A DNA stretch of 64,000 nt from Amoebidium appalachense. Taxonomy: Eukaryota; Protista; Ichthyosporea. Within the stretch, counting starts at the first letter, position 1. Each line of letters opens with the position of its first letter. The stretch covers positions 9,032,334 to 9,096,333 of the forward strand of contig CAVNZM010000005.1 of the NCBI GenBank assembly GCA_963693365.1, read 5' to 3'. The notes beneath the pieces were generated by a model that was given only the letters and a program-made list of their open reading frames with translations, had not been told where the DNA came from and did no database searches. This document shows, one piece after another, positions 7,349-44,960 of this stretch. The translations under genes and the position numbers were made by a program.

Positions 7349-20072
<12,724 letters not shown>

Positions 20073-30334: not shown

Positions 30335-32779
30335 GGGGGAGGGGAGGGGCGCCGGGGGGGGAGAATCCGTGCACACTGCAGCACAGCAGCAACACAATTA
30401 ACCAATCCAATACATTTTGAAATGTAGAAAGCCAGCGTTTGAAGCAACCACTGCTCATTTGTTAAACCAAAATAAAACTGTTTGAACAGCGGGAACTTGG
30501 ATGCAGATGCCGTCCGTCATCAAGAACCCCGTCCCTTCCTCCTCAACAAATGTAGTCGCGGTGCATGTTCCGGAAAAAAAACCGTTTTGGGCAGCCGCTC
30601 ACATATTCTTTTTGCCATCGGACCCCATGTGCACGTGCACCGGGGGTGGCCGGTGTGTGTGTGTGTGTGGTGGTGGTGGTGGTGGTGGGGGGGGGTGTCT
30701 GGGGAAGCAGGGAGGGAGGTGGCTGGGGAGAGGTCTGAGTGAACCCGGGGGTGGGGGCGGGGGAGGGGGGAAGGGGGGGGGGGGGAGATTTTTCGAAATT
30801 TCGGCCATTTTGCCAGTAAGAACACCAAAAAAGGTGGAAATGTTTTTATGAAAAACGGCATCTGTATGTATTCGGCACCAGGTTGCACCATCCCTTTCTT
30901 TAAAATATGTTGGACACGTGCTTGCACATATCGCAATGACCAACAATTTACTGGATTAACACGTGGTTCGACTTGTCCATGAGAGGTTGTCGATTGGTAC
31001 CGGGTGGCCACTGGCCCAGCCCTCTGCTGATTTGTGATGGTGGAAGAAAAATGATTGAGATCACTTGATGAAAAGTTAAAGAGAAATAATAAAATAAATA
31101 AAAATAAAAAATTAAATTAAAAACAACCCCCCTTTTTCCCTCTCCCTTCCCTTTCACCCGGCGCCCTGAACAACCACTGTTGTTTTCTCGCTCACACACA
31201 CCAATCGATGTGCGCATAATATGAACTTTAAATGCTCACTTGCTTCATAGCATGGCCGGGGTTGTACGTTCTGTAATGCATGGCGTGTAAATATACATAT
31301 GCAAGTGCACACAGATTTTAAACCGAGGAAAAAAAAAAAGGCAGGGGTGGGGGGGGGGGGTGTGGGGGTGTTCGAAGACCTATTGTAGGTGCTACACACT
31401 GTTGTTCCCGGGTTGAGCTTTCTGACAATGCTATTGCAGAGAGAAGGGACATCTCTTCCGTTTGGTCTGGCATCGGCAGACATGGTTGTGTACATTCACG
31501 TGCACACCGTGCTGTTCCCCCACAACCAGTCTACGTGCCTTTGTGTCTTCTCGCCAGAGGCTGGAATAGAGCCTCGGAAGCAGCTACCAATCGGCTGCAT
31601 CACTTTTAGCTGTATTCCTTATTATTGCAGTTGCTCTGCACCTTAAGTATGCAGTTAGGAGCGATACAAAGAACGTGAACACTTTGCCAGCATGTATCTT
31701 AGGTGTACGGGGCACACTGTGTGCCGTAGACACTTTATTGGGCACTAGACATACACATGTAGCACTGTAGTATAACGTGAAGCTATATTATGATCACCCA
31801 GGAGAAGCTCATGTACTCATGTATATGTCATGTACTTTACTATAAGTAGGGCCACATGCCTATTGGCTGTCGCCTTACAAAAGTATGCGAGCAGTGCTCT
31901 CCGGACCGGCGGAAACCAAGGGACTATAAAAGGCTGGTACATTCCAGACTTGGGTCACTGGGCGGGGCTGTGTGTCCGAGTAAACGTTACACTAGTCGTG
32001 CGGTGTCAGACTAGCTGTAGCACCTGCTTTCTTGTCTCTATACTTACGTGCGTCTCCTAGCCTGCATATGTTAACTAGGGCATAGTATTAGTGTGTACAC
32101 ACCCTGGGTTTCACATCATTGGAGACGGTGTGTTCCCCCAAACCCTGCATCCCCAACACACACAACACACACATCACGTGCAGGCACATGCACACACGTT
32201 TTTTGCGCCACAAGTACATAGACTGAATGCCTATCATCCCCCCCCCTCACCCCTTCCTCCCCCTTCCTCTCCAGTCACCCTTCAATGGCAAAAACATATT
32301 CCTTCTTGACACACCTTCGCACGCTTGACAGCAATGTCTCCCCCCCCCCCCCCCCCCCCTCCAAAGCACCACCACCACCATAAACACACACACACACACA
32401 CACACACGAATTCGTTTCCCTGCCCTCATCTCCTCCCCCCGTGTTCATACCTTTTCCCCTGCTGGCAGCCCCCCCCCCCCCCCCCCCCCTCCCCCCGCGC
32501 CCCGCCCCTTCCTCATCCACCTCCACCTCCCTTGTTTTTTCTTCTTTTCTTCTCTCCATTCACCCCGGCATGCACACACATTTTCTTTGAATGACTCATA
32601 CACCCCTTTCAACGTATACTACCCCTCCCCCCCCCCCCCCCCCTCCCCTCCCCCCCCCTTTCCCCCCTATTATGAACTCTCCAAGTGTCCATTTCCTTCA
32701 TCAAAACGGCTGTCCCTGTGCTGTTCGTATACACGGGCATGTGAATGTACTTATGCATACAGACGTGGCGAAAGGGTGT

Positions 32780-33477: not shown

Positions 33478-36174
33478 TGCACAGACGGATTTCAAGACCT
33501 GCACCGTCAGCAAGAACTGGCTTTGGGTGTGTTGCAGCACACACAGGGCAATCTGGTTGTGCACGTGACCGACATCTTAGGCGCCTACATGTTTGAGTTG
33601 GCAGCTGGTAATACCTACGCCCAATTATTTGTTGAGAAGGAGGAGGAAGGGGAGGGGAGAGTACGGCAAGAGAAGGCTCTTGGGCACTATGGTTCCTATG
33701 GGGGCTGTGAGCAGATCACAACGTTGCAGCTGGGAGATGACCGGGCTGTGCGGGAGCATGCACTTGCTGTGGTGGCTGATATTTGCGCAAATGATAGCCG
33801 CTATCTGCCGGCAACAAATAGGTGCCTTACCGTTGCTATTCAGGTACGGTACCAATGTCTCTTCCCCCCCCCCCCCCCCCCCCCTCCCCCCCAACCACAC
33901 ACACACACGCACACACATACGCACACACATGCACTTGCACAAACACCAGAAGAAAACGTATTTGGGCTGTGTGTTCGTGATTGTACGAGCTTGACTTGTC
34001 CTGTCTTGTTGTGCATCGGATGTGCCACGTACTTATTTCCCCTCCATCTCCCCCCCCCCCCCCCCCCCCCCCTTCCCCCCTCCCTCTCTCTCTCCCTCCC
34101 TCACTCCCTCTCCACTCGCCCTACACACACACACACACACATACAGTCAATACAGTCACACACGGACACACACCCCTCCTCTCCATTCAACAGTATAGGA
34201 TGGAATTGAAGCACTTTTGGTCCGGAGGGGAGTGACGTGCCATGGTTGTGTTTAGACGTCATGTGAAACTGTCTGTGTGGCAGTCTTAGGAGGCCTCAAT
34301 GTTATGTAGGAGTGAAGCGCGCGAACCGGGGGAGGGGGGAGGAGGGGTGAGCCAGGGGGGTTTTTAGTGGGCTTTTGGGAGACGCTGGGGTGATTTGTTT
34401 CTCCGATGTACATGCCAGTGTGAGTGGGATTGTAAGTGCGCCTTTAGCCCCAGCCTAGACAACTTTCGATCGATTTGGTGGCCAACAGACAGCTGTTCTT
34501 TCTTTGATTCGCTTTTTATGCGGCACATTCTTGGTCTTGAAGGAAAGACTGAGTGTGCCTGTTGGAATGTCTATCATCTACAGAGGGGTTTTTTAGGCCG
34601 ATTTCTAGGCTCTTTCGGGTTAGGGAAAAATGCTGTCTGGTGTGCATCTAGCCAATCGCAAAGCGGAACTTGTTTCCAGGTCTGACCCGACCCGGAGTCC
34701 CAAGAAAACTTCCTTTAATATTGCTAAAGGCCAATTTAGCCCTGGCCTGTTCTTTTCTTTCCTTCTCTCTTTCCGTTGTCCTTGCACATCTCCCTACCGT
34801 CTGGTGCTCTGTGGGCTCACACCTACGTTGTGCTTTCACAGCCGAAAACCAAGGAGGATGATCTTGATATTCAATCGGACCTAGACTTTGGTAAGCAGGT
34901 CCCCCCCCCCCCCCCCCCCCCCTGGGCGCCTGCCCGCCCTTCTTCCTCCTTCCCCCCTCCTCACCCTATCCATCCCCCTTCCCCCCTCCCCCTTCCACCA
35001 CCACAAAACCACCGCGACTATCACCAACATAAGTATTAGAAAAAAAAGAAAAAAATGATAAAGGAAAAAAGAAAAGAAAAGTAGGAAAAAACGACCACCA
35101 CCACCACTATTCCCCCCCCCCCCCCCCCCCCCCCCCCTCCCCCGCGCCGGGAAAAAGAGAAAAAAACAAAGACAGAAAGAAGAAAAAGAAAAGAAAGAAA
35201 GAAAGAAAGATGAAAGAGTGGTTCAAAAAGAGACAACCACCATTAGACGAAATGGCCTCACCACGGTGGTTCTCTGCGGCGGGCGTGAAGGGCTACATTG
35301 GGGCTATAATGAAAAAAATTTGCACGCATGTTCTCCCCCCCCCCCCCCCCCCCCCCCCCCCCCGCGCTTTTGTTTTTTCTTTCCCACTTTGCCTGGGATC
35401 GAGTATGGGTCGTCTTCTTCTTTTTCTTCTTCTTCTTCTCTTCTCTTTTTCGAGTCTGGCTGTTTTTTTTTTTTTTTTTTTTTTTTTTTTTGGATGCATC
35501 ATCTGCGTGGCTTGTCGTTAAGATATTAATGGGATGTCCCCTCCAAACCATGATACTCGTATCCATCTGATTGGTTGCTTATCACACAGCTGAATCCGAA
35601 CGTGATGGGATATCAGCGGCTTTATCTGGTGCCTTCGGATGTAAGTGTGAACCTCCCCCGTTTCCTGGTTGTTAACGTGTTCTTCTTTTGTGTGTGTGCT
35701 TGTGCTCCTTACATCCCCGTCATCGTCTTCCCCCCCTACCCCCCTCCCCCCCCCCCCCCCCCCCCCCCCCCACCATTACATCTATAACATGCACACACAA
35801 ACTCGCCCGTGCGCGTGGGCGCACACACACACACACACGCTCGTGCATGCACGCATCAAGATATTGCAATTACTTTTTGGTTACGACGTGCACATTGTGA
35901 CGGACAATACAATGCAGAGTGAAAAGCACACTTAAGGGGGCGGGGGGAGGGAGGGAGGGGGGGGGGGGGGGGGGGGGGTTATGCTATACCGTGGATGATT
36001 TACTAGATTCCAATCGATCATGTTCTCAAGTACCGATAGCCCCAACCTTACATGCACACACGCTTGCCCGAACACCCGTCCACTCGTTGACACACATGCA
36101 CACGTGGTGATTAACTGTATTTACCCCTCCTCCCCCTCCCCCCTTCCCCGCTTCCACCACAGCCCACTGCCTAA

Positions 36175-36234
<60 letters not shown>

Positions 36235-36727
36235 CCGTGAATCTTGTATGCAACCCAGTCGAACACAAGCAGTTTTCTCCTTTAGACGCATACGACGTTG
36301 AGCTTCAGCGTGTGCAGTCGTGCTGGCTGGGTGGGCATGGGGTAGGGAGTATCCTGCAGCAAGACGCCGCCAGTCTGTGTGCTGGCTGCCACGGCCTTAT
36401 CCCCGACTCTACGGGCGTACATGCCATCTGCCCCGCCTGCCTGCTACAACTATGCACGTGCTTACATGACGACAAACCTACGGCCTCCACCGAGTCTATG
36501 CTGCTTGCGGGGAGAGCATCGATAGTAGCTAAAAACATCAAACGCCTGGTGAGTGTCCCTGCAACATCATCAGAAAAACAAGGGGGGGGGGGGGGGGGGG
36601 GGGGGGGGAGGGGGGGGGAGTAGTAGAAGCAGGGGAATGTGTGTGTGTGTGTTTTTGGGTGAGGGGGGGTGGATGTGTGGGTGGGTGGGTGGGTGGTGGT
36701 AGTTTTTTTTTTTTCTTTTCTTTCTTT

Positions 36728-37109: not shown

Positions 37110-37189
<80 letters not shown>

Positions 37190-40100
37190 CACAGACACAC
37201 ACACAGGCCGCAGCATGTCCGTCAGAGCCCATTATAATCAACTTCACTGGCTACGTCTGTAACCAAAAATCCATGGACGAGATATTACATATCGTATCCA
37301 AAGCGGTGGGGTGGCCGAACAGTGTGTTGGTGGGCGAAGGGTGGAAGCATAATTTTGGGGATATGCTATGCCACCCCATCCTCTCCCAGGACACATCCAT
37401 GTACATCCAAACACCAATAACAGGAAAGGCGGAACCAGGGCTCTACGACAAGTTTCTTCATCCATTGGTACCCGGATCTTTCTGGACAAACGACTTCACG
37501 GAGTTGTTGGGCCCGGGACTCCCAATGGTTTATGTATCCGCCAAAATTCCCCGTCACCCATCCACTTGGCTACTGCAGCTTGCAAAGCGTAAGAGCAGGA
37601 AGAGCAGCAGGGAGCAAGCCAGGTTAAACATGTGGGCCTCTCGTCCCATTGATGAAAGCAAAAGAACCATGGAGTTCAGCACCTACAAGGTATGACAATC
37701 CCACTTTTCTTACCATCGTACAACTCTGATCACCACAATGATTTTCTTCCTACGCACTGTGCCCCTCTCCTGTCTTCCCCCCTCCCCCAAAACCCCCTAA
37801 TCCCCCCCCCCCTCCCCCCCCCCCCTCCCTCCCCCCCCCCCCCCCCCCCCCCCCGCCGCCAGCCCACCCAATCCCATTCTCCTTTATTTGTGTGTTTAGC
37901 ACAAACCGGGGATGGGTGGGCCTTACGCGTACACCGGTGAAGCATGGGTATGTATTTGCAGAGTGTGACTCAAGATGGGTGGCTGTAGGGTGTGTCTTGT
38001 TGACTTTCGGAACCCCCCTTGATGATAGGGCCCGTTGAACTGCCTGCATATTTTGTTCATGTCTCTGGCCACGGTGTCATGGGTTTGCCGGGCGTTGTGT
38101 TAACCTATGTTTTTTTTTTCGCCCAAAGACTCGTTCATAGACTCGTGCACAGAGAGAGCTAACCCCCCCCCCCTCCCCCCCCTCCCCCCCCCCCCCCCCC
38201 CCCCCCCCCCCCATTCCCCAAATTTCAGGTTGGCCCCATTGGTGTGCTTCGGCTGTGTGCCCAGCCCAGTGTGCCGGAGTTCACCGGGCAGCTGCTGCAG
38301 CGGCTGGAGCTGGGGTGCGGTGTGGCCGAGGTGCCCTTCGTTGGGTTCCGGCCCAGCAGGGTGCTCACCTCCGTGCACGACGCATTGCTGCTCGCTGCTG
38401 GCGGCTACGTAGTGACGGCACGGGCACCTGCCCAGGAGATGAGGTGGAGCTACCGTGATCGGCCCGGGCAAAGTCATACGGCAACACTTGATTTATTGTC
38501 AACTATTGTTGGCCGCACGGATGCCTGGCAGGATGCGCTTCTCGTGCGCATGGACACCTACACATTCCACCTGCTTACCTGCACAGGCACGAGACCATTC
38601 CGTACATTGGTGACTTCACCAATGTATATTCGCCTCAACAAATCACCACCGGCCAAGCACGTGCCCGATGTTCTCTACAAGGTCACCCGGACAGAGCAGC
38701 TGCAAAATATCCCCGAAGGCAGCGTCCTCAGCTGCTCCGTGGGCCTGGCTTCCAGCCTTGATGAGCGCCGCCTTGGGTTTCCGCTGTTCTACGGGCTGCT
38801 GCTGCACGATGTGCTCTCATGGGGGGACACGTGCACACTCTCCCGGCCACCGACCGCACCAAGGTGCTGATGCGCCTGGCTGCTGACGGCAACATTCCGG
38901 TGTGGGGCAGCGGCTCAACCGCCACATGGGTCACCCCCAAAGAGCCTACCCTTCCAACCAACCAACCCCCAGCCATGCGTGTGGCCATTGTTTCCCCCCA
39001 ACCCGTCACCCCTGCAACCATCGCATCCCTGTTCAGGGGGGGTGGCTGGGACCAAGTGGACCTGAGGTTCCAGCCCGATGGGCCATATCCATTTGGGGCC
39101 GCACCGGGGGGTTTCTACGTCACGTGCTTCCGCGGCGGCTTTTACACATCCGGCACATCCGGGGCACCAGAAATCAGGTGTGAGGGGTGTGGTACCAACG
39201 CCAGATTCACGCACAGTGGGTGCCTTGGTATGGGCTACGTTTGCGTCATGTGTGGGGAGATTTCGAATTGGCCGCCGAGAGCCGGAATCCTTCGACAATG
39301 CCGTGGCCCTTCGTAACCCCCAAAAAGTGGTACACTCGAGCGAGTACCTGAGATTGAACGCCGGGGATTATCCGATACATATGCCCAAAACCAAGCTGCA
39401 CTCGAGCGATGACCTGAGTTTGCTGCTCTTAGTCATGGCCCAAGGCACCACCTTTGGCCCCCCTTCGCCCCCAACCCCCCCCACGCTGCCCCCCGGCCCG
39501 TCCCTCCTGGCCGACCTGCAGGCCGCATGTGCAGACGGCCTCCTGCAGCAACGCACCGACGAGGACACTTATTTTTGATTGGATGGCGCCTAGCAACGCC
39601 AATGGCACCATCCCCCCCCTTGTGGCCGCATGCACGCGCATTGTGTGGGACCTGTCCACGGCCACCGTTGCTGCCCGGGCCCCCGTGGGCCTGCCCTTCT
39701 CGGCCCCCATGGCCCCGCTGCTGGGCACTGCGCCGGTGCGCTGCCAGCCGGCCAGTGTGGGGGCGCTGCTGCTTGTGTTCACACACGGTGACGTCATGGC
39801 TGTCATTGCTGCCAATGCCTACGACCTGCCCCTGGCCAAGCCGGCCAAAACATTCCTTCGTAAGGAAGGCCTGGAGGGTCGCCTGCTGCCCGGCAGGACG
39901 TATGCCATTGAGGTGGTGCCGAAGGACAGCAACTGCGAGGGCCTTGTGGCCAATCACCCGCCGGTATTTTTGCGTGGGTGGGGGCTCTTGCAGGCGGCCG
40001 TGGGGCCGGACGGGGCCGAGGAAGTGGGCACTGGCCTGCAGCAGATGGCCCGGCAGCTGGGGCTGTGGGTGCATGCAGAGAAGTGGGCCCCCCCTCAGGT

Positions 40101-40797
40101 CAGCTGGGCTCGGCAGGTGGGCGCATGCCTGCGTGGGTAGGAGCTGGCGTGGGGGGGCGGCCGGCTGGTGCTGGAGAATGAGCACTGGCAGGAGGCCAAG
40201 AGGCGATTGGCTGACGTTAACCCAGACGTCATCTGTCAGTTTATGATTGGTGGATGCAAGGGCGCCTTCGATGAGTGGCTGGGCCTGCTGCCACCGTTGT
40301 TTGCCCTCGAGGCAAAATCCCTTCTGGCCCATGCCACCACCCTCTACCATGCTGTGCCCCCACCACCCTCGATGGGCAAGAACCCCCCCATCTGGATCGA
40401 TGAAATTCCGCCGCCACAGGCAATCGTTGGCCAGGAAAATGCGACCAGCGCCTCCACCCGCCTGTCAGAGGATGAAAAGCAGCTACATTTGGCTGCTGTG
40501 TGTTCAATCGAGGGGCAGTTGTGCCGGGCAGGCACCTACACCCCCACCGACCCGTTCTGTGAGCTGGAAGTGGCCGGGTGGCTGCCTCGAGATTTGGGCT
40601 GCAACGGCCAGCTGGGCGGTATGATTGACGAGATCACGGCATTGGTCTTCCGCTACGTCCCATTGGCTGATTTCCTCAAGCTGCGATTGGTCTGCAAGAG
40701 GTGAAGGGGCATCGTGGATGGCAGCAGCGTGCTGCAGCGGCGGAAGGAACAGGCAAAGAAATTGGTGGCCGGACATCAAGAGGCTTTCCGGTTATGA
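33478..40797 (+). pseudogene. Large multi-exon gene with a disrupted terminal exon: Cys motifs, degenerate nucleotidyltransferase-like domains, C-terminal F-box
   Basis: Phase-consistent GT-AG exons 33478-33843, 34842-34890, 35590-35640, 36235-36548, 37207-37689 and 38229-40797. Possible further 5' exons 30490-30560 and 31389-31484; start unresolved (candidate 28866). The last exon has frameshifts near 38825, 39275 and 39572 and in-frame stops at 40138-40140 (TAG) and 40702-40704 (TGA). F-box-like LGGMIDEITALVFRYVPLADFLKLRLVCKR*RGIV at 40612-40716. Confidence 0.72.
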
Positions 40798-40881
40798 AGA
40801 TGAGAAGGACAGGTAGAGATGAATTTTTGGGGGAGAGGTGGTGGGGGATGGGGTGTGGGGGGAGGGGGGCGGGGTGTGTGT

Positions 40882-41189: not shown

Positions 41190-42048
41190 ATATGATATGA
41201 AATCTGAGAGGGAGGGTATTGGAGGGATGGCTTTAGGGTGACATCTAGAGTTGGGTAGGTGAGCATGGGTGTGGAGTGAAAGGACGATAAAGAGGACGAG
41301 GATGAAAAGTTGGGGGATGAAATGTGAGGAGGAAAAGGCTGGAACGATAGGGATGATCTGAATTTGGATAACATTACGAGGGAGAATGTGGGAAAGGCAA
41401 GAAAGAGGTCGAGGATGAAATTTGGGAGGAGGCTATATGGAAGGGATATAACTGGGGCAGGAAGAGTGATCTGGTGTAGGTTAGCATAGGAGGTTCAGAT
41501 GATATGCACGAGGGAATCGGAGGATACGAAAGTGCACAAGGATGAAATCTGGGAGGCATATGGAGGGAAGGCTTAAAACGATTTGGATTATGGGGTCGGT
41601 GGGAGGGATATGAAAGAGGGTGGGGTTGAAAACTGGGAGGTCATGTACGAGGGACGATGGGACGATAAGTTGGTCTCTGGGAAGGATGTGAATTTTAATT
41701 GGGCGAGGATGAGATCTGGGAGGTGTATGGAAGGAAAATGGGACGATAGGGAATATGGGTCGGTGGGAAGGATCTGAAAGAGGGCGAGGATGAAATCTGG
41801 GAGGGCATGGATGAGGGAAGTTGGGACGATGAGGATTTTGGGGTCGGTTGGAAGGATATGTAAGAGGGAGAGGATTAAATCTGGGAGGAATCCTATGTAG
41901 GGAAGTTGGGACGATAAGGAATATGGGGTCGGTGGGAAGGATATGAAAGTGGGTGAAGATGAAATCTAGGAGGAGGTATATGGAAGGATAGGTTGGGAAG
42001 GATCATCTAGGGTGACGATCGGATCTTATGTGCAAATGTAATGTTTTT

Positions 42049-42093
<45 letters not shown>

Positions 42094-42360
42094 CGGGAAT
42101 GCTATCGAGGATGAGGATGAGAATCGGGAGGAGAGGCACGAAGAGGATAATTGGGACGATACAGATAGTCTAACTAGGGTCAGGGAATTGTATGAGGAAA
42201 TGGGAGGACGCGAAAGAGGATGAGGATGAAAATCTGGGAGGATGTATGTGAAGGAAGAAACTGAGAGATGGATAGGGAAGATCTCCGTTCTTTGATACAT
42301 ACGAGGGTGAGGTGGGATGAGGATGAAAGAGAGGGTGATTGTGAAATCTAAGAGGAAGGG
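41190..42360. repeat. Degenerate purine-rich minisatellite, period about 82-85 bp
   Basis: Recurring gaggatgaaatctgggagg...gggacgat...ggggtcggtgggaaggatatgaaagaggg units near 41539, 41705, 41786, 41870 and 41956, with weaker copies on both sides. Confidence 0.8.
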
Positions 42361-44960
42361 ATGAGTGGGTTTGCCGAGAATGATATTTACTGTGAAGTGA
42401 AAGTGGGGCTTTGGCTACGCTGGTGGGTATTTGACTGTGTTTGTGCGGGGGTCGTCGTTATATGTCTATGTGAATTATGTACGTCTGGTTAATGATTTGG
42501 GGAGTTCGAGATATCTTTTGTAGTGTTGTGTGGTGTTATTGTGTATGGTTATGTATATGTGGAAAGCCCATCTTATGTTTATTCCGAATACGGCGTTATA
42601 TTAGTGATATATGACTACTACAGATGTTTATGCGGATTACAGTGGTTGTCCTTTTCTTTGCAAGCATTTAGGAATTATCTTTTCTCGGTATTGTCTTTCT
42701 TTTTCTCGTTTTCCTTGCTCATTGGGAACCTACTTCGTAAATACTATGAATATGAATATGTCGGATGCACACTGGCAATACAAACACATTGGTTGCTAAC
42801 GAAAACAGCCCGTGAGAAATAAATGCACCAGTGCACACATAATATAGAGCACACTTTCATCGCTTGGCCACAGCATCCTCGTCGCTATGTATGCACGTGT
42901 GTGTGTGCGTGTGAATGTGTGTGCGTGTGCGTGCGTGCGTGTGCCCCGTCCCTAATAGGCGTGTGTGCGCATGTGCCTGTTTGTGTGTGTGCGCGCGCAC
43001 TCGCATGTGCCTGTGTATGTGGGTGTGCGCCTGTGCATATGTCCGTGTGTGTGTGTGTGTGTGCGCGCGTGTGTATTAAAGGTGCATGTGCATTCATATG
43101 TGTGCCCGACGGTACTCAAAACATGCTCACACTCAAGCACACACCGGTGTATGCCACACTCCTACCCTTACTTGAAACACACATGTGAATATAAACATGT
43201 GCATATACACTCACACGTGCACGCGTGCACGCATGTCAGGCATTCGCGTACCCCCCAAAAATATGAGCTTGTAGGATTGCCCCCTCCCCCCCTCCCCCCC
43301 CCCCCCCCCCATTCCCCCCGGGGCCCCCTCCAATCCCGTCCCAGCCCTTCCTCCTCCTCCCAATAAATCTTTGCTGGGCACGTGCACCCCCCCATCCCTT
43401 CCGCACACTCCTGGTCTAGTGCACAATTTCAAGTCTCCCCGTGTACCGGCAAATCACGTGATACTTTCTTTACCTATTACCATATAGCGCATGCCCGCCA
43501 TGACATGTAGTTGAGATGCCACCATCATCGAGTCTTCGTGGTTTTTTTTTTTAAGTCTCAGCTTCACACATATTTCATACTTTTATTAAGTTGAAACCGA
43601 GAGATACACTAGCTGTATCAAACAACTTTCTTGAATACACTGTATCAAGCAACTTTCTTAGCTCAGTTTCTTTCACAACTAAATTAGATTTACGACTACT
43701 GTTGTCCCAAATCACCAAAAAGAGGAAATGATGCACACATGTACTTAAATTAGACTGTTTTAGTTTGTGCATCTATATGCTTAGATCACAAAAGAATAAT
43801 TTTTATTCCCTGTGACATATATTTTTCTTTTTTCATTCATTTTTCACCGGTTTAAACAACGGCGCAAACCCTCCCCCCAAACCTCAGAACACAACACGAC
43901 CCCCTCCCCTCCCCCCCCCCCCACCCACCCACCAATAATCAACAACAAACTCAAAATTAAAAATTCAAACTAGATTCGCAGTATTCAAATATTAATGTAT
44001 CCATGTATCTACCTACTTCTCGATAACTATCTACACACAGCTATCTCACCTAAGTATATCACCTTGCCAATTGAATTTTCGCATATCACCGGGCCCCGGC
44101 ATGCTGCAGCCACACATAATCGCCCCCGGCCTCTTCATCCTCTTCAATATCGTTTGGAAGGTCTGCCCAAACAGCATATCCGTTAGTTTAATGTAGGTCT
44201 ATCATGTAGTGTGAAAGGAAACAAGCAACCCAATAAGAAAGTCTTCCAAGTTAGGTTCATTTATAGCCATATGCCCACAAAACGGGTGCACAGTCTACAG
44301 CCCAAAGGGGAATCCACAAGAAGCCCCCCCCCCCCCCCCCCCCCCCCACAAACAAACAAACAAACAAACAAACAAACAAAAAAAAAAAAAAAAGAAAAGA
44401 AAAAAAAGAAAGAAAAAAAAACAAAAAACCACCCACCCATCTCACCAGTTCAAAGCAACCCCCCCCCCCCCCCTGAGAGGGTGTTGTTTGAGAGGGGGTT
44501 GTTTCGCGCGCGCAAGCGAGGAGGAGAGCGGGGGGGGGGGGGGGGGGGGGGGGATGTTTGACTACAGAAGTGAGCTCTTACGGGGGGAAAGCAAAGTTCA
44601 GTTTTAGTGCGCATGCCTGTTGTCGTATTTTTACAAAAGTAACGGGCACGAAACATCATTTTAAGCTCGCAGCCTTGTGAAAAAAACCGCTTGTGTTCAC
44701 GGGTGGAAGGCACTATATAGTGTTCCATTGATTCATGCTGAAAGGAGATGTCATCAGAGATAAAGCACCTTCTTCTTGCGCTTTCTGTTTTCCTTTTTTT
44801 TTTTTTTGTTTCTCTTTTGTTCCCGCCATTATTTTCATCAGCGGCAACCAGTTGACAGCAACGCAATTCACCACCAAAAACTTCTGATCAAAGCCTCCAC
44901 ACACAAACACAAAGTCATGTTTTTCACACAACCAAACACAAAGAGCCCACACCACTCTAC

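Follow-up and report, generated by a model that had tools for sequence, protein, structure and literature searches.

A pseudogenised F-box gene of the ichthyosporean Amoebidium appalachense with a probable, catalytically dead RNA ligase remnant

In plant NLR receptors with integrated decoy domains, a borrowed inactive domain serves as bait, and in F-box families with fast turnover duplication is followed by loss; the gene described here resembles both by analogy only. The guanylyltransferase-like domain of CMTR1 is inactive. As presented in an excerpt of its published description (PMC6071836), this domain offers a precedent for the reuse of a nucleotidyltransferase-like fold inside a larger protein, although CMTR1 is a cap methyltransferase without an F-box. 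A further parallel concerns domain order, since in the poxviral ANKR/F-box adaptors of the SCF complex, as outlined in part of PMC9414399, the recognition module comes first and the F-box last, with predicted recruitment of Skp1. The gene reported here shares this order, and differs in carrying a probable pseudo-enzyme in place of ankyrin repeats, a canonical PF00646 F-box, and the introns of a host gene. Among enzymes, the closest described counterparts are the Rnl1 family of RNA ligases (T4 Rnl1, PF09511, and the phage and bacterial RnlA-like proteins). In the nucleotidyltransferase superfamily, according to the portion of PMC7261155 that describes its motifs, these motifs carry catalysis, and the lysine of the KxDG of motif I takes the AMP.

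The locus lies in a stretch of 64,000 nucleotides from A. appalachense (contig CAVNZM010000005.1), which is referred to throughout, at its full length, as the window. The original prediction, made from the sequence alone, described a long last exon encoding a capping-enzyme-like segment (a), a CxxC motif, an Rnl1-like segment (c), and a C-terminal F-box (d), and stated that no described protein is known to have this architecture. No such protein was found in the databases or literature searched, and none of these sources showed an F-box protein in which a dead Rnl1 ligase serves for recognition. Segments (c) and (d) returned 0 homologues among 1.84 billion representatives, and no relative was detected in the candidate stretches from viral contigs (0/10 and 0/5) or in the candidate metagenome contigs (0/100 and 0/129). 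Two supplements of PMC11244446 contain no ligase, capping, or F-box terms, and the figures and other tables of that work may bear on the question. The features of the locus are as follows.

33478..33843, + strand: predicted coding exon of 122 aa, upstream, without family assignment (bounded by AG and GT, open, and part of a phase-compatible chain; 0 Pfam/NCBIfam matches)
34842..34890, + strand: predicted small exon (AG/GT ends, phase 0 to 1)
35590..35640, + strand: predicted small exon (AG/GT ends, phase 1 to 1)
36235..36548, + strand: predicted exon encoding a zinc-finger-like cluster rich in Cys and His (sequence and splice phases; no Pfam match)
37207..37689, + strand: predicted exon, 161 aa, no family (splice phases; atlas matches under 0.82 only)
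38229..40797, + strand: long last exon (disrupted by two stops and three frameshifts, all of them also found in raw contigs)
38337..39100, + strand: segment (a), a remnant possibly, but not provenly, of capping-guanylyltransferase type (motifs ordered by visual inspection; no significance in profile tests; frameshift near 38825)
39179..39253, + strand: CxxC-x17-CxxC, likely zinc ribbon (sequence)
39255..39315, + strand: second frameshift, approximate place (the open frame changes; paralogue spacing across it 606 against 589 bases)
39495..40350, + strand: segment (c), probable Rnl1-like ligase remnant without catalytic residues (profile and secondary-structure tests; frameshift near 39570, stop at 40138)
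39732..39773, + strand: degenerate motif I loop, PASVG instead of xKxDG (alignment; apparently identical in the paralogue, from contig break points and flanking differences)
40612..40728, + strand: C-terminal F-box with a stop at 40702-40704 (PF00646, 22.1 bits)

The five predicted upstream exons join the last exon in phase, yielding 619 codons with 0 stops before the first frameshift, and the full predicted product comprises about 1,270 residues, the position of its start codon not being fixed. No family in Pfam or NCBIfam matches the upstream exons, nor does a kinase/phosphatase profile or any of 18 other decoy families, and the first match of the 37207 exon in the ESM Atlas (0.81) falls below the usable range. 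Two more exon-like open stretches upstream on the + strand (30492-30650 and 31389-31640, the second running into a stop) may be 5' exons of the predicted gene. The last exon, in three-frame translation, extends from an AG acceptor at 38229 to a terminal TGA at 40795-40797, and all peptides quoted in the original prediction were recovered in it at their places. Its frame shifts close to 38825, at a point within about 39255-39315, and close to 39570. The presence of frameshifts had been recognized beforehand; two in-frame stops had been missed, a TAG at 40138-40140 and a TGA at 40702-40704, the latter within the F-box. Third codon positions in the assigned frames are 69-78% G+C, which matches the expectation for former coding DNA.

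Assembly error as the source of these breaks was ruled out by the raw contigs of three runs (X1, X2, and X8). Contigs of X1 and X2 across 38227-40830 show 0 differences and 0 gaps with respect to the window, either of these runs possibly being its source, and the copy in X8, a run with another organism label, keeps both stops and shows no indel undoing any frameshift, all five breaks being common. The X8 copy differs from the window copy at 21 places and has an additional 2-base deletion at 38484. Among the coding differences listed, 6 are synonymous and 22 non-synonymous (28 codons, 13 in the 37207 exon and 15 in the last exon, after two with uncertain frame were dropped), for a neutral expectation of 24-29% synonymous. 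On the basis of the genomic frame breaks and of this neutral-looking divergence, the window copy is a real pseudogene that cannot make the protein, and it died before the lineages of X1/X2 and X8 split. None of the runs listed with this copy is an RNA run, which says nothing about its expression. The C-terminal F-box is nonetheless still recognizable, as had been predicted, with PF00646 matching 40627-40728 at 22.1 bits against a Pfam cut-off of 20.5 (E=1.4e-4, with the stop read as X).

The relationship of segment (c) to Rnl1 was assessed with reference ligases gathered by motif from viral contigs (77 full-length sequences of 119 extracted), of which the four checked all belong to PF09511. 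Aligned with hhalign to these 77 proteins, segment (c) scores 28.4 over 257 columns (E 0.0034), a score reached by 0/300 of its shuffles, the longest of which spans 91 columns; the reversed segment scores 18.2. A separate profile aligner yields z values of 2.8-5.1, and in pairwise comparison with 151 Rnl1-like members both the best score (131; 0/300 shuffles, shuffle maximum 106) and the mean (59.3, shuffles 46.1+/-1.8) exceed those of shuffled sequences, with a z of 0.4 in a control against 150 unrelated ORFs. The Rnl1-like profile is the best of 23 profiles tried on the segment. In other tests, a sub-profile drawn from 25 sequences near the best match yields z 2.0 (5/150 shuffles), an ordered-block test is reached by 0/150 shuffles with ten blocks and 14/150 with eight, HMMER with home-built profiles returns P values of 0.02 and 0.09, and the hhalign probabilities for the link are 1-20% only. 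When compared with guanylyltransferases, segment (c) outscores its shuffles as well (0/100), which may reflect a superfamily signal or a lenient shuffle control.

In general libraries the same segment is silent. It has 0 matches to ligase families in Pfam, PHROGs, and NCBIfam, below every library threshold, with the curated Pfam cut-off of PF09511 unreached and no match to that family at E<=1; PDB sequences provide no ligase link, and tblastn against phages yields 2 records only, at E 4. Such blank searches are what would be expected of an ordinary lineage-specific F-box protein whose middle part resembles ligases and capping enzymes by chance, a reading that also draws on the failure of segment (a) in every test and on the pairwise E-values of segment (c) (0.001-0.06), which lose significance once about 25,000 families are corrected for. 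A chance likeness is harder to reconcile with the colinear alignment of segment (c), over its full length, to four profiles that all share one register (212-257 columns), and with an independent agreement in secondary structure. Folded without an alignment, segment (c) agrees with the model of the reference ligase L023 (pLDDT 94; top PDB match T4 Rnl1, E 1.5e-16) at 65% of 249 aligned positions, while 248 shifted registers agree at 34+/-7% and none as well (0/248). The single-sequence model of segment (c) alone has a pLDDT of 37.5, and a fold search with this low-confidence model reaches a best Z of 4.8, with no match at Z>=5. On balance, a fortuitous resemblance appears improbable, and the profile and structure comparisons make descent of segment (c) from an Rnl1-like ligase very probable. 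The Rnl1-like match of the original prediction is supported by tailored profile tests, and finds no counterpart in Pfam, PHROGs, or NCBIfam.

Segment (c) is 23% identical to L023 over 267 residues. As in the Rnl1 family, it appears to present an N-terminal strand, a CRG-like strand, VAR, a motif I loop, motif III (TYxxE), a motif IV/V region, and the first helices of the C-domain in the same order and spacing. Unlike in that family, the motif I Lys and Asp (K97>A, D99>V), the motif IV Glu (E217>V), and both motif V Lys (K231>V, K233>E) are replaced in the mapping on L023, as is R56, the Arg of CRG, by T; E152, the motif III Glu, is kept, together with G100 and G218. The loss of KxDG reported initially is hence confirmed for this segment, and the domain would be inactive, given the replacement of its catalytic motif residues. 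It further departs from the Rnl1 family in falling below the Pfam cut-off and in lying within a spliced eukaryotic gene with an F-box. Since the defining lysines are missing, the predicted protein is not a member of the Rnl1 or the capping-enzyme families.

The capping-like reading of segment (a) fares less well. By eye, the segment shows look-alikes of FPG, motif III, motif IIIa (D...R), and motif IV (FQPD.PY) in the order of mRNA capping guanylyltransferases (PF01331; PBCV-1 type and cellular). In contrast to these enzymes, it lacks KxDG, as the original prediction had stated, with YVVTARAP at 38406-38429, devoid of lysine, in place of the motif I KxDGxR, and a Cys4 motif stands at the position expected for the OB domain, where no match to the C-terminal OB domain (PF03919) is found within 38825-39310 at E<=10. 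Against guanylyltransferase profiles (viral, of 78 and 25 sequences; cellular-enriched, of 21; and broad, of 142), hhalign finds only local matches of 10-31 columns (E 0.1-0.4), which coincide with motifs IIIa and IV, correctly ordered. Pair scores are reached by 41/300 and 109/300 shuffles and are not significant, ordered-block scores are reached by 65/150 and 47/150, HMMER with home-built profiles finds no match, and the first match in the ESM Atlas (0.82) lies below the usable range. The C-terminal half of the segment, a post-hoc choice, is equalled by 3/200 and 16/200 shuffles in pair tests and, when tested against the broad profile, by 4 to 21 of 300, with z values of up to 2.8 for this half; it gives no signal with the cellular guanylyltransferase profile. 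A capping profile matches the CMTR1 entry 8p4e_O of the PDB at E 1.5e-5, and a search of PDB sequences revealed no link between segment (a) and CMTR1. The proposed capping-enzyme identity accordingly does not rise beyond chance against three guanylyltransferase profiles, and an origin of segment (a) from an enzyme of this kind is tentative, somewhat short of an even prospect. The ranking of the ligase match above the capping match made at the outset agrees with these results, tailored tests supporting (c) and leaving (a) unproven. The CxxC-x17-CxxC motif is present as originally described. In the linker before the ligase remnant (39331-39428), two imperfect units of about 27 bases lie 66 bases apart (HSSEYLRL / HSSDDLSL).

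A second, diverged copy of the gene occurs in runs X1, X2, X8, and X13, with about 80-90% DNA identity where aligned. This paralogue is known from separate contigs, its F-box contig not being joined to its ligase contig, and X13 is taken as RNA by guess only. An 822-base contig links 38917 to 39507 by 606 bases, a number divisible by three, against 589 in the window; in a contig of 653 bases over 39585-40228, one joint is as long as in the window and the other is shorter by 3 bases; and a 214-base F-box contig shows TGG at the position of the TGA of the window. Contigs of both copies stop at 39761 and restart at 39744, and the differences listed bracket 39732-39773, from which we infer that the two copies do not differ in the 42 bases that encode the degenerate motif I loop. 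Based on the differences listed, an identical run as long as this arises in 116/20,000 random placements. Because the loop appears to be shared, the catalytic loss is likely to be older than the duplication. At sites where the window copy departs from Rnl1, the paralogue carries G and VVAR as Rnl1 does, but it has lost C, and its 11 listed residue changes sum to +0.8 bits on the Rnl1 profile, with no better fit overall. The search for an intact paralogue called for in the original prediction therefore led to a diverged copy seen in pieces, with in-frame lengths where readable and, by the above reasoning, the same dead motif I.

That the window copy is dead, that the paralogue is seen only in pieces with its expression a guess, and that synonymous changes account for only 9/20 of the codons listed as changed between the two copies would also fit a family in decay as a whole, in which a ligase gene that had once been active lost its lysines after becoming a pseudogene, the paralogue is equally non-functional, and no adaptor ever worked. 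Several observations speak against such general decay. The contrast between 23% identity to the best ligase and about 80-90% DNA identity between copies implies catalytic losses far older than the duplication, all readable joints and loose ends of the paralogue (the latter read by eye) are open and in frame, and the dead motif I loop is the putative longest identical run between the copies. Decay of the whole family is quite improbable in our judgement; the paralogue is reasonably likely to be whole and expressed, and there is a strong likelihood that the ligase fold was dead already in the working gene.

The explanation favored here takes the window copy for the pseudogenised duplicate of a lineage-specific spliced host gene, the working paralogue of which would be an SCF substrate adaptor with a pseudo-ligase binding module, a proposal to which we accord about an even chance. 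The pseudo-enzyme SCF module originally envisaged retains in this form its ligase remnant without KxDG and its C-terminal F-box, while its capping-like domain is unproven, the suggested decoy or sensor role is conjectural and, as the window copy is a pseudogene, the adaptor idea applies to the paralogue, seen in pieces. This paralogue, which is likely intact, would give rise to an adaptor about 1,270 residues long, in which the C-terminal F-box is predicted to bind Skp1 and the dead, Rnl1-derived ligase fold would likely serve as the binding module for targets. The pseudo-ligase, possibly assisted by segment (a) and the zinc ribbon, might take hold of the end of an RNA or of a protein that partners capping or RNA-repair enzymes, with a parasite or virus as the most plausible source, and the F-box would bring the SCF complex to ubiquitylate the bound protein. 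The adaptor is predicted neither to adenylate itself nor to seal RNA. The role assigned to the F-box follows the established function of its family, whereas the target is one that we infer. A paralogue acting in the predicted way would represent a new class of pseudo-enzyme linking RNA-end repair to SCF ubiquitylation, and would make defence in the unicellular relatives of animals accessible to experiment. A bolder and distinctly unlikely extension is an antiviral SCF adaptor of this animal-relative protist, in which dead RNA-end enzymes (a capping guanylyltransferase, an Rnl1 ligase, and perhaps more in the upstream exons) would bait the transcription, capping, or RNA-repair machinery of giant viruses to the proteasome; if true, this would constitute an integrated-decoy F-box receptor outside plants.

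The favored host origin has to be weighed against an origin of the fusion in a giant virus or endosymbiont hijacking the SCF complex, with later acquisition by the host and gain of introns. C-terminal F-boxes are typical of poxviral adaptors in the part of PMC9414399 that treats them, the last exon runs for 2.6 kb without introns, and sections of PMC11244446 describe virus-linked genes kept among host genes with host-type methylation in Amoebidium and discuss their domestication. The closest ligases found also come from viral contigs, but the reference ligases derive mostly from a viral collection and their origin says little on the donor; moreover, no relative was found in the viral contigs or phages searched, and a Pfam scan of 140 window ORFs revealed no viral hallmark gene. 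With five introns predicted and no hallmark, the locus does not resemble a giant endogenous viral element, defined as intron-poor, gene-dense, and bearing hallmark genes. In those sections of PMC11244446, Amoebidium methylation is further reported to prefer CGC/GCG, with methylation of other CGs marking silenced viral and transposon DNA. Over 37150-40830, run X11 behaves as a cytosine-converted library, with CG protection mainly in the CGC/GCG context: in one run, at the level of the contig consensus, 271 conversions are seen where 321 are expected without methylation, 285 if only CGC/GCG is methylated, and 238 if every CG is (sum over 7 of 8 listed pieces; the piece dropped had a depth of 2 and showed 4 differences). 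This pattern suggests that the locus lies outside any obviously hypermethylated viral island. A domesticated viral or parasite effector is, on this evidence, unlikely.

Judged by their sequence matches, the neighbours of the pseudogene are host genes. Besides a second transposase piece, 7/140 ORFs have Pfam matches at E<=0.01, namely Pam17, five hexosaminidase pieces, and a pogo-like transposase. The Pam17 exon (993-1202, - strand; PF08566, E 1.5e-11) encodes a mitochondrial import protein, and the beta-hexosaminidase gene (GH20; about 10846-18883, - strand) is intron-rich, with five exon pieces matched by Pfam. Within it, on the opposite strand, sits the Pogo/Tc5-like transposase (13600-15169, + strand), with weak matches to HTH_Tnp_Tc5 and DDE_1 split over two frames. 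An UNC93-like MFS transporter (PF05978; 22279-23808, - strand) is intact and intronless, with 510 codons, in an intron-rich genome, and its best database relative is only 67% identical. Downstream of the gene, 41200-42400 is a purine-rich region of degenerate repeats, and simple repeats (poly-C/G, CA, GA) make up about 14% of the bases of the whole window, many of them adjoining splice sites.
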